64,000 bases of DNA from a virus (taxonomy: Duplodnaviria; Caudoviricetes), in IMG/VR virus record IMGVR_UViG_3300037501_000255. The stretch is one strand, 5' to 3'. Made by a program: the position numbers and the translations under genes. The notes beneath the pieces are model-generated. The model worked only from the letters and a program-made list of their open reading frames with translations, was not told where the DNA came from and did no database searches. Positions 5,732 to 44,083 of the stretch are shown here, piece by piece (position 1 is the stretch's first letter; each line of letters opens with the position of its first letter).

Positions 5732-7339
5732 TCAGAACTCTCCGCGAGAGAATTCCGCAATGACAGCCGGGGCTGCCGAATCGAATCCAGCTACATCAAG
5801 CATACCGCGATCCGTAGGATCTGCGATCGTGAATGAGCTGGCATTCATACCTACCACAATCAGCCTGGCTGGAATACCCATGCGCTCGCGGTACGAACGT
5901 AGAGCTGTAACCGGCTGCACTCGACCTGCCCACGTTTCATTGTCGGTATAGACAACGAATGTGTCGACAGGCACCTTGGCCTTTTCTGCTGCGATCATTG
6001 GCAGCGCGCAGTCTGTGCCGCCCATCGGGATTACACGCATTTTCTTCATCACGACTTCCAGCGAATCTTGCTTGGCAAGAGGGCAGGAAATGAGACGATC
6101 CGAAAACGCGCTTACCGACACACTCTCTTCTGTACGAAGAGTTGCCATCGCCATTGCCGCTACACCCATGCGTGGGGACATGCCCGGCGAACCGAGAATC
6201 TCTCCTATATCCATGGAGCCTGAAACGTCCAGAGCGATGTGGGTGCGCTTGCCAGATGGCTCAATGAATCCGAATGAAGTGTAGAACAGCTCATTCAGTG
6301 CCTGAGCAACATCCTTGGCTGGAGACCAAGTCAGCTTCCCAAGACGACCCCCACCATTTGTATAGGTGTTGTACGCTGTCAATACGTTGAATGGGTGGAT
6401 GCGCGCGCGCTTAACTGCCTCTGCATTCGACAGCTTGGCAATTACTCGCTTCGCTGCATCGTTACCATTTACCAGCAACCCGTACGCTGTCATACGACCG
6501 AGGTTACGGATGAGGGCATTTAGCGGCATTTTATCAAGAAGAGCATCCCAAACTTCCGGAGAAGTCTGAAGGTTCGTCGGAATGTGCTCGTGCACCAGAC
6601 CGAACTCGCGAATCAGGGGAATGACACTCTTCGCGTCGGGAGCCAACTTAGCCGCTTCAATTGCCAGCAACTTGTTGAAGGCACGCTTGTCGCTAACATT
6701 GTCAAGCTCTACCTTGAGTGAACCCTGCGAAGCAATCCACTTGTAGAACGTCGAGCGGTCATCATTTTCTGGCTTTGGGTGCGCGAGACGCAGAACGTCC
6801 CTATGCGACCAACCTTCGCGCTGACCGTACTTGGTTACATGATACACCAAGGAGTCTAGTTCCTTGTCGTTGTACCAAGACGACACTGCATGCCTCATCA
6901 GGCGGCCCCAACCCGAAGTCTTGCCGACTTTCTTGTGGTAGTCCAAGAAAGTGAAGAGCATAGTTGGGGTGCGGCAGATCTTCTGCACGGCATCAAGAGC
7001 TGCCTTCCTCACTTCAACGCTCTCGTGACGAGAGGCGAGGGCGAGGACGAATAGTGTAGGATCTTGTTTGGCTGCCCGACCTTGAGTAGAGATGGTTACC
7101 AATTCTTCTACAACACGCTTGCCTTCACGATTGAGAAGCGCAGTTACTTGCGGACAATCTGCAATGGTAAGATCTGCATTTTGGCTCGCTGTGTACTGCG
7201 CCCTCTCGCTGCCGAGAATGAGGAATCTGCGCAGGTGATCAAAGCTGTCTGTGGAGAATACGACACCGCCCGCGCCGTTACGCACTTGGCGGTCGTCGTA
7301 CATTTGCTGCTGCGTTGCATTTGGATTGATAACTGTCAT
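5732..7339 (-). CDS. rsr: Ro60/Rsr TROVE-vWA RNA-binding protein
   Basis: QVRNGAGGVVF, LRRFLILGSE, KYGQREGWSHRDVLRLAHPK, ALDVSGSM, GGTDCALPM, YTDNETWAG, DVAGFDS. Confidence 0.98.
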   Translation of the reverse strand: MTVINPNATQQQMYDDRQVRNGAGGVVFSTDSFDHLRRFLILGSERAQYTASQNADLTIADCPQVTALLNREGKRVVEELVTISTQGRAAKQDPTLFVLALASRHESVEVRKAALDAVQKICRTPTMLFTFLDYHKKVGKTSGWGRLMRHAVSSWYNDKELDSLVYHVTKYGQREGWSHRDVLRLAHPKPENDDRSTFYKWIASQGSLKVELDNVSDKRAFNKLLAIEAAKLAPDAKSVIPLIREFGLVHEHIPTNLQTSPEVWDALLDKMPLNALIRNLGRMTAYGLLVNGNDAAKRVIAKLSNAEAVKRARIHPFNVLTAYNTYTNGGGRLGKLTWSPAKDVAQALNELFYTSFGFIEPSGKRTHIALDVSGSMDIGEILGSPGMSPRMGVAAMAMATLRTEESVSVSAFSDRLISCPLAKQDSLEVVMKKMRVIPMGGTDCALPMIAAEKAKVPVDTFVVYTDNETWAGRVQPVTALRSYRERMGIPARLIVVGMNASSFTIADPTDRGMLDVAGFDSAAPAVIAEFSRGEF

Positions 7340-7352
7340 ACTGACTCCTTCT

Positions 7353-7415
7353 AGTCGAATGGACCAAAGGTCCGTGTGTGGAAACCGTATACACGGTCCC
7401 GAAGTTGGTTGGACT
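7353..7415 (-). promoter_or_regulatory. structured leader of Ro60 resembling a degenerate Ro-binding helix
   Basis: AGTC-C-AA ... TT-C-GACT closing helix enclosing CCGTGT/ACACGG and GGACC-TTT-GGTCC, directly 5' of the AGAAGGAG RBS. Confidence 0.4.
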
Positions 7416-7428
7416 GTGAATTTTTATA

Positions 7429-7698
7429 TCAGCTGTGGTAAAAGCTGAACCAATCTCCCTGATCGGAGCTGGAATATGCGACTACTTCCCATCCTGCCGA
7501 GCGATATTCGTCAAGCACGGCATTTAGAACCTGCTCGTTCTCTTTAAACAGGAATTCGATTATCCCTCGGCGAATCTTTATCGGAAAAGGTCCGGCATAT
7601 CTGAGGCGTAACTCAGCATCTATTATGCCCCTCGCGCGCGAAATTGCTGCGAGCTGGGCTGCATTTAGCACCGTAAGATCTGCTGGTGTCGTGGCCAT
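7429..7698 (-). CDS. hypothetical protein
   Basis: ATG ORF downstream of terminator/AT-rich region. Confidence 0.6.
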   Translation of the reverse strand: MATTPADLTVLNAAQLAAISRARGIIDAELRLRYAGPFPIKIRRGIIEFLFKENEQVLNAVLDEYRSAGWEVVAYSSSDQGDWFSFYHS

Positions 7699-7723
7699 GT
7701 CACATTATGATTTATTAGTAGGC

Positions 7724-7765
7724 AAAAGAAAATGCCCCACATATAAGTATTTCTATATGTGGGGC
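7724..7765 (-). terminator. intrinsic terminator
   Basis: GCCCCACATATA/TATATGTGGGGC stem followed by ATTTTCTTTT. Confidence 0.75.
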
Positions 7766-7829
7766 TAATAACTTACAATATTAACAATATATAATATAAA
7801 ATGAGTCTGTTATGGGTGACCCGACCCAG

Positions 7830-7879
7830 GTTATTTAGTAACCACCTGATGGATTAGAGGACCATCACCTACAGTGGTG
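7830..7879 (-). repeat. 50-nt structured repeat, copy 1 (copy 2 at 43037-43086)
   Basis: CACCAC-TGT-AGG-TGATGG-T-CCT-CTAAT-CCATCA-GGTGG-TTAC-TAAATAAC. Confidence 0.85.
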
Positions 7880-7885
7880 AATCTC

Positions 7886-43200: not shown

Positions 43201-43208
43201 CCGTGAGA

Positions 43209-43304
43209 TGGTGGGAGGGGTTGGATTTGAACCAACTTTAACCAGATAACCTTCTTCTATCGGACAATTCAGTCTAGTAGTTGAAGACGGATTTGTCACT
43301 TCCC
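43209..43304 (-). ncRNA. D-armless tRNA-like / permuted Y-module chimera B
   Basis: GGGAAGT..CCGUCUUC..CUAGAC-UGAAUU-GUCCGA-UAGAAGAAGG-UUAUC..GTTGG-TTCAAAT-CCAAC-CCCTCCC-ACCA. Confidence 0.78.
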
Positions 43305-43307
43305 AAG

Positions 43308-43436
43308 TGGTGGAGGGGGCTGGACTCGAACCAGCGACACAGGGCATTTCATGCGATAACCGATTTCTGTCGGAACAGGAGTTCAAAAAGTTGAAATCGA
43401 ATTTGTTCCCTGCTCTACCAACTAAGCTACTCCTCC
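43308..43436 (-). ncRNA. Phe-like tRNA scaffold / permuted Y-module chimera A
   Basis: canonical D- and T-arms, ACCA; CGAUUUC..UUGAAC-UCCU-GUUCCGA-CAGAAAUCGG-UUAUC-GC-AUGAAAU-GC. Confidence 0.85.
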
Positions 43437-43443
43437 AAAAAAA

Positions 43444-43728
43444 TCACTCCAGAGTCATGCAGCTAGTCGGAGGGCTATCGCAAGAAGCGGTGGCCAAATC
43501 AACTTCGCATGTCTTAATTTCCTTGACTGAAGACTTGATATCGTGATCGCATACTCGCTCCGACGCGAGTACTTCAAGACACTCCTCTACAGGCTGACCT
43601 GTGCACTCCGACGCCTTGCTACAATATGCTGCCATCATGGTACGACATGCACCTTGTTTTTCTTCTTGCGATTCCTTGCAGGCAGAAATCGAGAGGAGTA
43701 CAAATACATAAAGCAGGATCTTTTTCAT
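43444..43728 (-). CDS. Cys-rich lipoprotein (myxobacterial style)
   Basis: LSISAC lipobox, 10 Cys. Confidence 0.7.
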   Translation of the reverse strand: MKKILLYVFVLLSISACKESQEEKQGACRTMMAAYCSKASECTGQPVEECLEVLASERVCDHDIKSSVKEIKTCEVDLATASCDSPPTSCMTLE

Positions 43729-43746
43729 TTTCTATTTCCTTTGTTA

Positions 43747-43869
43747 TGGCGGCGACATCCCGAATCGAACGGGAAACGCGCGTTTAACAGACGAGAATAA
43801 TCTTCAATCGGACCTCGGGTCGAGTGGCGAAGATCACTTTTTCGTGTGATACCATTTCACCATATCGCC
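43747..43869 (-). ncRNA. tRNA scaffold / permuted Y-module chimera D
   Basis: GGCGATA/TGTCGCC-GCCA; GAUCUUC..UCGACC-CGA-GGUCCGA-UUGAAGAUUAUU; then CUCGU-CUGUUAA-ACGCG. Confidence 0.83.
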
Positions 43870-43950
43870 ACATGAGGGTGCTTTTTGGTTTTCAGAAGTT
43901 TCCCCCTACGCCTCAGGCAGCTGATAGTTTTCTAACCGCCACCTCAAAAT

Positions 43951-44083
43951 ACTTCCTAGCAGGACTCGAACCCGCACAGATCATATCGATAATTCATACC
44001 ATCGGACAGAGTCAATAACCGGTATGGTCGGCTGGTCACCAGATTTCTCTGGTCGTACTTACCAATTAGTACGATATAGGAAG
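43951..44083 (-). ncRNA. tRNA scaffold / permuted Y-module chimera E
   Basis: CTTCCTA/TAGGAAG, 6-bp D-stem, extra CCAGA-GAAA-TCTGG hairpin; CAUACC..UUGAC-UCU-GUCCGA-UGGUAUGAA-UUAUC; T-arm. Confidence 0.82.

Follow-up and report, generated by a model that had tools for sequence, protein, structure and literature searches.

Eight non-coding elements in a 64,000-nucleotide stretch of viral DNA (IMG/VR record IMGVR_UViG_3300037501_000255; hereafter the window) – its source a probable jumbo phage – are best understood as Y-RNA partners of the Ro60 protein that the same DNA encodes. They present one docking helix in two topologies, as three free-standing hairpins and as five tRNA-shaped genes that we call tRNA–Y chimeras, and they would be processed in the manner of tRNAs; we give this reading a probability of roughly 0.78. 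The elements have a defined anatomy, their helices covary, and they are associated with Ro60 genes across many genomes. Because models built from them match Ro60 loci and hardly any controls, the likeliest role of the elements is that of Ro60 ligands, set free by tRNA processing. An initial inspection of the letters alone (below, the sequence-only reading) had proposed Y-type Ro60 partner RNAs embedded in a tRNA array, and this core claim is supported, as far as sequence comparison can do so, by two of the models (R1 and R3), which match Ro60 neighbourhoods and barely match controls.

A shared docking helix in eight elements

All eight elements carry a common docking site, in which (G)GUC pairs with GAC(C) and is accompanied by a bulged C, a GA dinucleotide, a variable upper helix and a single-stranded UUAUC. 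The linear motif GTCCGA-N5-15-TTATY occurs six times in the window, always on the minus strand, against 0.54 occurrences expected, and none of 100 shuffles reached six; the two remaining sites, near 41130 and 43380, are one-nucleotide variants (GGUACGA and GUUCCGA, respectively). Every copy has the vertebrate-type U–A pair (GGUCCGA/UUGACC) or a near variant of it. The number of elements with a bulged-C helix of the (G)GUCCGA...UUAUC / GAC(C) kind is exactly the eight first claimed, all on the Ro60 strand, and the eight positions originally given for them are the 3′ (low-coordinate) ends of these minus-strand elements.

Three models were used. R1 was seeded on free hairpin 1 and one foreign copy, R2 on two embedded modules (those of chimeras B and C) together with their T arms, and R3 was built from the five embedded modules of the window. 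MAFFT alignments of the modules were not structure-consistent; the models were seeded from gap-free pairs, followed by re-alignment with Infernal. Run over the whole window with filters off, R1 returns the three free hairpins listed in Table 1 and nothing else, the next match having E > 1. The next-best full-length matches of R2 are exactly the three chimeras outside its seed (E 1e-4 to 2e-3), after which only T-arm fragments of ordinary tRNAs follow. As R1 and R2 thus recover exactly three plus five elements, most of them unseeded, the count of eight is objective.

The upper stems had been said to covary, and they do: their sequence differs in all eight copies while pairing is kept. Across the five embedded modules, 94.7% of cells are paired, compensatory changes fall in six of the seven upper-stem pairs, and the covariation score is reached by none of 500 shuffles. 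What did not survive is the idea that the eight are one kind of module, since the set divides into three free hairpins and five permuted arms within tRNA-like genes.

These numbers also dispose of one alternative, namely chance motif matches in a region rich in RNA genes. Short motifs do recur, and among the matches listed in linear-motif scans of IMG/VR most were indeed due to chance (200 of these loci were reused as the motif-matched controls described below). Against this stand six occurrences on a single strand where 0.54 were expected, complementary upper stems in every copy, model E-values down to 1e-9 and matches at independent Ro60 loci. The motif, covariation and model statistics already refute the chance reading, whose probability is negligible.

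Free hairpins and tRNA–Y chimeras

The free hairpins, about 70 nt long, are wired like animal Y RNAs, with their ends at the lower helix. The 5′ half consists of a lower stem of 6–7 bp, the bulged C, GA, an upper stem of 7–9 bp and UUAUC, leading into a loop of 20–30 nt; the 3′ half comprises the returning upper strand, 6–9 unpaired bases, the last two of which are mostly UU or UA, and GACC. Hairpin 1 occupies the gap between open reading frames 34245-34610 and 33973-34149. Hairpin 2 begins 5 nt past a tRNA-Val gene and hairpin 3 begins 2 nt past a mini tRNA-like element, which sits between the two, is matched by R2 and R3 in its T arm only, and may serve as a processing signal.

The chimeras are tRNA-shaped, with an acceptor stem, a T arm and usually a D arm, and three of the five encode CCA; their RNA ends were assigned from gene anatomy. 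In place of the anticodon arm stands a loop-capped, circularly permuted Y helix. A chimera thus runs from the acceptor 5′ strand through the D arm, the Ro 3′ strand, a loop, the Ro 5′ strand, UUAUC, a variable region and the T arm to the acceptor 3′ strand (with or without CCA). Within the embedded module itself, the order is upper 3′ strand, 7–8 unpaired bases, GAC(C), a loop of 3–6 nt, (G)GUC, the bulged C, GA, upper 5′ strand and UUAUC.

Table 1. Positions and main features of the candidate Ro60 partner RNAs, the Ro60 gene and a tRNA-like element next to the hairpins
Feature	Position	Strand	Description
Free Y hairpin 1	34164-34237	minus	identified from sequence; R1 seed; 7-bp lower stem, loop of ~27 nt
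Free Y hairpin 2	40781-40860	minus	R1 39.5 bits, E 3.6e-9, unseeded
Free Y hairpin 3	40652-40720	minus	R1 25.8 bits, E 5e-5, unseeded
Chimera A	41081-41205	minus	module 41128-41172, GGGUACGA variant (GGUACGA); acceptor stem 7/7, D arm, T arm, no CCA
Chimera B	43308-43436	minus	module 43355-43399, GUUCCGA/GAAC variant; acceptor stem 6/7, D arm, T arm, A-CCA
Chimera C	43209-43303	minus	module 43245-43290; minimal form, no D arm; acceptor stem 5/7, T arm, A-CCA; R2 seed
Chimera D	43747-43869	minus	module 43795-43834, UUAUU variant; acceptor stem 7/7, D arm, T arm, G-CCA
Chimera E	43951-44083	minus	module 43988-44026; acceptor stem 7/7, long D arm, T arm, no CCA
Ro60/TROVE gene, 535 aa	5732-7339	minus	Pfam TROVE E 1.9e-44, vWA_Ro60 E 2e-63
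Mini tRNA-like element, D-armless	40722-40770	minus	short acceptor stem, hairpin, T arm, CCA; from sequence and fold

The five differ in detail. Chimera A, which R2 finds unseeded (E 1e-4), is called by ARAGORN as a tRNA with a 46-nt ‘intron’ and scores 33.6 bits with the Rfam tRNA model, with a 59-nt insertion instead of the anticodon arm. Chimera B, also called by ARAGORN and a seed of R2, scores 39.8 bits with that model, 64 nt standing in for the distal anticodon arm, and chimera C follows directly after it, the 3′ part of C being nearly identical in layout to positions 9794-9862 of locus L058. Chimera D (R2 E 1.6e-3, unseeded) has a long variable hairpin and is the third ARAGORN call, while chimera E (R2 E 2.3e-3, unseeded) begins 2 nt past a tRNA-Pro gene and contains an extra GAAA-capped hairpin. 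With introns allowed, the ‘introns’ that ARAGORN assigns to A, B and D measure 39–54 nt. The cloverleaf of the Rfam tRNA family (RF00005), with its 5-bp anticodon stem and 7-nt loop, is found in none of the chimeras: A and B pass the tRNA gathering score only with insertions of 59–64 nt for the anticodon arm, and C, D and E stay below it.

Some of these details recur elsewhere. A chimera sub-type with an extra GNRA-capped hairpin of 4–5 bp between the D arm and the Y module includes, besides chimera E, copies in a phage (L012, 11927-12060) and in a bacterium (L326, ~4565-4697). A variable-arm hairpin directly after UUAUC, with a loop near CUGUUAAG, is present in chimera D and in modules of loci L013, L016, L060, L063, L071, L317 and L381; judged by its letters, this CUGUUAAG-like loop is a second conserved feature of the chimeras. 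On the 3′ side, chimera A is directly followed by a tRNA-like sequence (40994-41060, minus), which, like another one at 35324-35400 (minus), is matched by the Rfam tRNA model (42.2 and 29.3 bits, respectively) without a call from ARAGORN. Midway through the tRNA/Y array, two adjoining genes for trypsin-like peptidases run in the opposite direction (41180-42601, plus); the first of them overlaps the 5′ end of chimera A by ~25 nt.

The ARAGORN calls raise the question of whether genuine tRNA genes underlie the chimeras, with the embedded modules as introns or inserted mini-elements. After excision of the module, a phage ligase would rejoin the halves into functional tRNAs, and the helix would be a splice or mobility signal. 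This proposal, which we consider distinctly improbable, fits the intron-bearing tRNA calls for A, B and D, with B read as Phe(GAA), the lack of an ordinary tRNA-Phe in the window, two tRNA-Leu-like genes with other nested inserts in the array, and the RNA-repair genes nearby. Yet the ‘intron’ positions vary and are non-canonical (31, 35 and 35), and the Rfam tRNA model must delete the whole distal anticodon arm. Past UUAUC, chimera B has only a 4-bp hairpin with a 3-nt loop rather than an anticodon loop; C is devoid of a D arm, and E has a hairpin with a 4-nt loop where the anticodon arm should be. Chimeras of other genomes, once the module is removed, are likewise left with no anticodon arm, and the conserved module goes with Ro60 genes rather than with one particular tRNA identity. 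As no anticodon arm remains and the module tracks Ro60, we rejected the intron interpretation.

Relatives beside Ro60 in other viruses and bacteria

The association with Ro60 becomes apparent when the models are applied to other genomes. The viral set comprised 71 Ro60 loci from an IMG/VR scan with the Ro60 protein (36–46% identity). R1 produced 23 matches in them (E < 1). Of these, 22 share the strand of Ro60, and nearly all lie in the 1 kb upstream of the gene, often two or three in tandem. In an alignment of 26 free hairpins, 90.6% of cells are paired, compared with 64% after shuffling and 28–46% in slid controls; compensatory changes affect all 17 of the 17 pairs, and the observed covariation score is equalled in 0 of 500 shuffles. 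Most hairpin copies read GGGCCGA/CUUGCCC; the GGUCCGA/CUUGACC of the window and of locus L047 is a covarying pair. The docking signature, initially presented as a mark of animal Y RNAs, is real but neither an animal hallmark nor peculiar to this phage, being shared by a large phage and bacterial family that mostly has GGGCCGA/UUGCCC.

The embedded modules behave in the same way. R3 has 39 matches (E <= 0.01), which are distributed over 28 of the 71 viral loci, share the strand of Ro60 without exception and lie no more than about 2 kb from it. Of the 20 best viral chimeras, 16 have a perfect 7-bp acceptor stem, and a canonical D arm lies upstream of the module in most of the rows printed. Across 28 aligned embedded modules, 93.1% of cells are paired and none of 500 shuffles reaches the observed score; slid controls for both alignment sets give only 28–51% pairing. 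RNAalifold, applied to a sequence-only MAFFT alignment of 25 full-length chimeras, recovers the acceptor stem, the D arm, the lower Y stem and the T arm, and 19 of the 21 pairs covary. The upper stem was not recovered from that alignment, in which MAFFT shifts the variable region by one column between rows; because this shift hid it, support for the upper stem comes from the model-fitted alignments and the slid controls.

In the window, the elements lie 26.8–36.7 kb from Ro60 and share its strand. Whole-contig searches of five Ro60-positive IMG/VR records revealed a similar arrangement, with 2–5 chimeras in each of four huge phages (360–488 kb), located 13–100 kb from Ro60 in regions that hold 10–46 tRNA genes within 8–16 kb, on the same strand. 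The placement of Y partners inside a tRNA array, as first proposed for the window, thus extends to four other huge Ro60 phages. The large number of dispersed copies had been singled out as unusual; several distant copies do exist here, but such sets are common in huge phages and myxobacteria.

The bacterial set comprised 80 Ro60 loci from GTDB genomes (Myxococcota, Chloroflexota, Armatimonadota, Longimicrobia and others), in which R3 and R1 found 93 and 25 matches, respectively (E <= 0.01), all on the Ro60 strand. Each of the 11 bacterial chimeras checked has a perfect acceptor stem, and the printed rows show D arms. Among the carriers are the cultured Chondromyces apiculatus DSM 436 (L381, chimeras at 7265-7389, 7575-7701 and 7955-8077) and Sorangium So ce388 (L348, chimera at 6705-6828). 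Rfam models run on 11 chimera-rich bacterial loci gave tRNA matches only, many of them to ordinary tRNAs arrayed around Ro60, with the chimeras appearing as ‘tRNAs’ of 120–136 nt, and YrlA – the tRNA-like Y RNA discussed below – had no match at threshold in these 11 loci. In five of the bacterial loci (L317, L318, L381, L348 and L326), Ro60 is flanked on both sides by long same-strand arrays of ~71-nt tRNAs, among which chimeras are scattered; in L381, tRNA matches number more than 30 in 11.6 kb.

Controls gave almost nothing. R3 (E <= 0.01) had no match in 100 viral loci (0.80 Mb) selected for TCCGA..TTATC..GGTTCGA, and R1 had none in 100 viral loci (0.84 Mb) selected for GTCCGA..TTATC..TTGACC. 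Five TROVE-negative large phage contigs (0.89 Mb, 72 tRNAs) contained one weak, partial R3 match of 26.9 bits. This match (G006:C1:96387-96588, in IMGVR_UViG_638275430_000001) adjoins a 119-nt tRNA match and may represent another kind of insert-bearing tRNA. The sequence-only reading had stipulated that the motif should not be equally common in phages without Ro60, and the structured motif is absent from the motif-matched loci and nearly so from the TROVE-negative contigs.

This distribution bears on two further alternatives. The elements could be tRNA-like decoys or anti-defence RNAs that act independently of Ro60, for example as baits for anticodon nucleases or tRNA-binding toxins, with the helix as a stable substitute for an arm. 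Their location in a phage tRNA array, the absence of an anticodon loop to cut and the fact that Ro60 is not adjacent in this genome would all suit such a role. The same module with the same bases is, however, found co-oriented beside Ro60 in about 100 independent loci and is nearly absent from Ro60-less controls, and the three free hairpins share the helix without having any tRNA shape, which makes the decoy explanation improbable. Alternatively, the helices might serve the tRNA operon itself, in its processing (as sites for RNase III or RNase E) or its regulation (as attenuators), and resemble Y RNAs by convergence. Free hairpins do abut tRNAs with spacers of 1–5 nt, both in the window and in other phages. 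A generic nuclease site would not be expected to keep GGNCCGA, GGUUAUC and CUUGNCC in different phyla and at the same time to be linked to Ro60 in position, and a promoter and terminator scan of the region from 33.8 to 44.4 kb revealed nothing that exceeds chance; this option is very improbable. Even taken together, the four alternatives are unlikely compared with a Ro60-partner role.

The phage Ro60 protein

The Ro60/TROVE gene was correctly described at the outset as full length, with both the TROVE and the vWA_Ro60 domains matched. Its closest solved relatives are vertebrate Ro60 chains, aligned end to end (9nen, 454 bits; Xenopus 1yvp, 440 bits), followed by Rsr of Deinococcus radiodurans at 380 bits, whereas Ro60 of the Thermus phage phiLo is far more distant at 23 bits. 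The residues aligned with Xenopus K170, R174 and H187 are all kept in the phage protein. On the basis of mutagenesis, we take K170 and R174 to be required for Y RNA binding and H187 to be needed for the binding of misfolded RNA in the Ro60 cavity. The 5′ leader of the gene (7335-7430, minus) was considered as a further Y-like element and rejected, given its fold z of -1.09 relative to shuffles and the lack of an R1 or R3 match.

Comparison with known RNA families

Conservation of Ro60, a major autoantigen, and of its Y RNAs extends from bacteria to humans; only a handful of bacterial and phage Y RNAs have, to our knowledge, been studied. A comparison over 4,227 Rfam families placed the free hairpins closest to the nematode sbRNA family (RF01656, ceN72-3_ceN74-2) and to Y_RNA (RF00019), in both cases below threshold. 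With Y_RNA (gathering score 38), hairpins 1 and 3 align over their full length at 21.4 bits (34160-34238) and 20.6 bits (40650-40721); with the sbRNA model (gathering score also 38), hairpin 3 scores 32.6 bits (40651-40723; E 0.009 at window scale), hairpin 2 scores 22 bits (40780-40863) and hairpin 1 scores 16 bits (34163-34240). The proposed comparison with the Rfam Y_RNA, YrlA and sbRNA models thus singles out Y_RNA and sbRNA as the best matches for the hairpins, albeit at scores that are all sub-threshold. The YrlA model (RF02553, gathering score 69) gave 19.1 bits at 41008-41132. This match was dismissed as an artefact, its alignment spanning the T arm of chimera A and the D arm of the tRNA-like gene that follows; dimeric tRNAs had been pointed out as a source of such artefacts by Chen et al. 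2014 (PMC4201824).

The likeness to animal Y RNAs, one of the initial claims, is borne out by the consensus lines of Y_RNA and sbRNA, which both read GGUCCG...GGGUUAU(C)...ACUUGAC. The animal-type helix, in which the RNA ends pair around a bulged C in the context GGUCCGA / UUGAC, is formed by the three free hairpins; the five chimeras have the same helix, but capped by a loop rather than made by the RNA ends. The hairpins thus share with animal Y RNAs and nematode sbRNAs the free-hairpin wiring, the 5′ GGUCCGA, the upper stem, GGUUAUC, the 3′ CUUGACC and the single bulged C. They differ in having much shorter loops (~20–30 nt), no RNA polymerase III context and no oligo-U tail, and in being encoded in a phage tRNA operon.

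The chimeras invite comparison with YrlA, the tRNA-like Y RNA of bacteria and mycobacteriophages (PMC4201824; bioRxiv 10.1101/312249). Both have a strand of the Ro60-binding type (GNCGAA/GGUCCGA) on a tRNA-like body (T arm, D arm and acceptor-type stem) and are encoded on the Ro60 strand; the tRNA-like domain is complete in chimeras A, B, D and E and is without a D arm in C. In YrlA, the order is Ro 5′ strand, variable region, T arm, closed acceptor stem-loop, D arm and Ro 3′ strand (PMC4201824). YrlA therefore ends at the Ro stem and has a loop-closed acceptor, whereas the chimeras end at the acceptor stem and have a loop-closed Ro stem – none of them has ends at the Ro-binding stem together with a closed acceptor. 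Set against the YrlA order of Chen et al. 2014, the gene order of the chimeras makes them circular permutations of YrlA. In Mycobacterium smegmatis, RNase P cuts the acceptor loop of YrlA and CCA is added, creating an open acceptor end (PMC4201824), which is the same end as that predicted for the chimeras. A further difference is UUAUC, which is missing from the RF02553 consensus. Chen et al. 2014 looked for YrlA within ~4 kb of Ro60 on the same strand; the window elements share the strand at a greater distance, and chimera relatives in other genomes do lie within ~4 kb.

Two other systems are relevant. Yrn1 of D. radiodurans and Yrl1/Yrl2 of phiLo, which are encoded beside Ro60 and bind it, and whose ribonucleoprotein can engage PNPase in both systems (PMC4201824; PMC12135203), also keep both strands of the Ro helix. 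Unlike the window elements, they occur in one or two copies beside the gene and have large effector loops, and the phiLo Ro60 is distant, as noted above. Two-piece transfer-messenger RNA (tmRNA; RF04321) is a precedent, being a tRNA-like family whose single fold occurs in two circularly permuted versions; its sequence and function are unrelated, and its matches of 11–16 bits derive from the T arm and CCA only.

Proposed processing and function

Under the Ro60-partner reading, the elements would be part of the transcripts of the adjacent tRNAs, from which tRNA-processing enzymes would excise them, with RNase P generating the 5′ end and RNase Z, or exonucleases together with the CCA enzyme, generating the 3′ end. 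Because the loop-closed Y helix takes the place of the anticodon arm, the free ends of a chimera would be at its acceptor stem. Hairpins 2 and 3 would be released owing to their flanks, a tRNA-Val and the mini tRNA-like element. Ro60 would then bind the bulged helix on its outer surface, and the tRNA body of the chimeras might act either as an adaptor that brings Ro60 to proteins recognising the tRNA shape or as a gate of the Ro60 cavity; such an effector-binding or gating part has also been proposed for YrlA. The likeliest purpose would be to survey, repair or degrade tRNA-like RNAs that become damaged or misfolded in the course of infection – our best guess on account of the tRNA-modification and RNA-repair genes nearby. 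The sequence-only reading went on to suggest that Y partners might tether repair or decay enzymes, a hypothetical role.

Several considerations weigh against a Ro60-partner role. A sequencing-run search found the window sequence in freshwater metagenome DNA runs only. As the elements are 27–37 kb away from the gene, the local link to Ro60 rests on analogy with other genomes, and every score against a Y-type family of Rfam stays below the gathering value. In the embedded modules, the lower helix has just 3–5 bp and is capped by a loop, and the acceptor stem of chimera C is poor. On the technical side, the control with Ro60-negative genomes was small, at five contigs, and the alignments from which covariation was counted were fitted to the models.

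A bolder conjecture, tentative and in our estimate rather unlikely, is that the chimeras are functional tRNA look-alikes, which would be processed, CCA-tailed and perhaps modified or charged, and would load Ro60 onto the tRNA machinery, making up a ribonucleoprotein, encoded by phages and bacteria, that monitors and repairs tRNAs against tRNA-cleaving host defences. The common signature GGNCCGA...GGUUAUC...CUUGNCC would in that case mark animal Y RNAs and the prokaryotic forms as a single ancient family, descended from tRNAs whose anticodon arm turned into a docking helix for Ro60.

Significance

Previous work has described Ro60 genes and Y RNAs of phages as well as tRNA-like Y RNAs (PMC4201824; PMC12135203; PMC7824862). 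In the searchable literature, which did not extend to the main Ro60 reviews, we found no description of the tRNA-wired, loop-capped form, of the compact animal-like hairpin family with GGUUAUC, or of placement in a tRNA array. The window combines one phage Ro60 with eight different candidate partner RNAs, the largest single set in this analysis and one in which both topologies stand side by side, and the models derived from it generalise to more than 150 further copies. Two RNA types – the compact animal-like hairpin and the tRNA-wired chimera – are missed by the Rfam YrlA, Y_RNA and sbRNA models, which suggests that earlier surveys under-counted Y RNAs through the filtering of tRNA-like matches. 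The two types accompany more than 100 Ro60 genes of phages and bacteria and are also present within phage tRNA arrays, a distribution that ties Ro60 to tRNA biology more directly than before. The chimeras of C. apiculatus DSM 436 and Sorangium So ce388 offer culturable carriers for further study.

Genomic context of the window

Some open reading frames of the window match phage protein families, and its Ro60 region has no near-identity match in the phage collection searched. The ordinary tRNA genes, of which there are at least 21, all lie on the minus strand between 3.8 and 45.7 kb. One of them, a tRNA-Tyr, lies 90 nt downstream of the Ro60 gene on the same strand, making Ro60 a member of the same co-oriented minus-strand tRNA island. 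The island also encodes IF3, a TilS-like PP-loop enzyme, MnmA, RlaP, a 2H/LigT phosphoesterase and a macro domain, as well as HAD_SAK_2, metallophosphatases, ClpB and Hsp20. No PNPase gene was found among the ~50 open reading frames of the window scanned against Pfam. DHH and RlaP were considered as Ro60 partners and rejected, as their co-occurrence with Ro60 is too rare: DHH is present in 5 of 71 phage Ro60 loci; RlaP was encountered at 8 of the 71 phage loci and at 1 of the 80 bacterial ones.

The two tRNA-Leu-like genes mentioned above (37572-37701 and 39401-39531, minus) are of type II, ~130 nt each and CCA-ending. Both have an insert of ~44 nt in the anticodon region, itself with a T-arm-like hairpin; these insert-bearing tRNAs contain no Y helix and have no R1 or R3 match.

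At higher coordinates of the minus strand (52019-60241), 8–16 kb from the Y array, co-oriented genes for RlaP, ClpB, the macro domain, the 2H/LigT phosphoesterase, a metallophosphatase, HAD_SAK_2 and MnmA form what looks like an RNA-repair or anti-defence cluster. Finally, the TilS-like PP-loop gene (23538-24263, minus) overlaps the 3′ side of a tRNA of unusual length (98 nt) with a CAU anticodon (24222-24319), and the two may constitute a phage tRNA-Ile2/lysidine pair.

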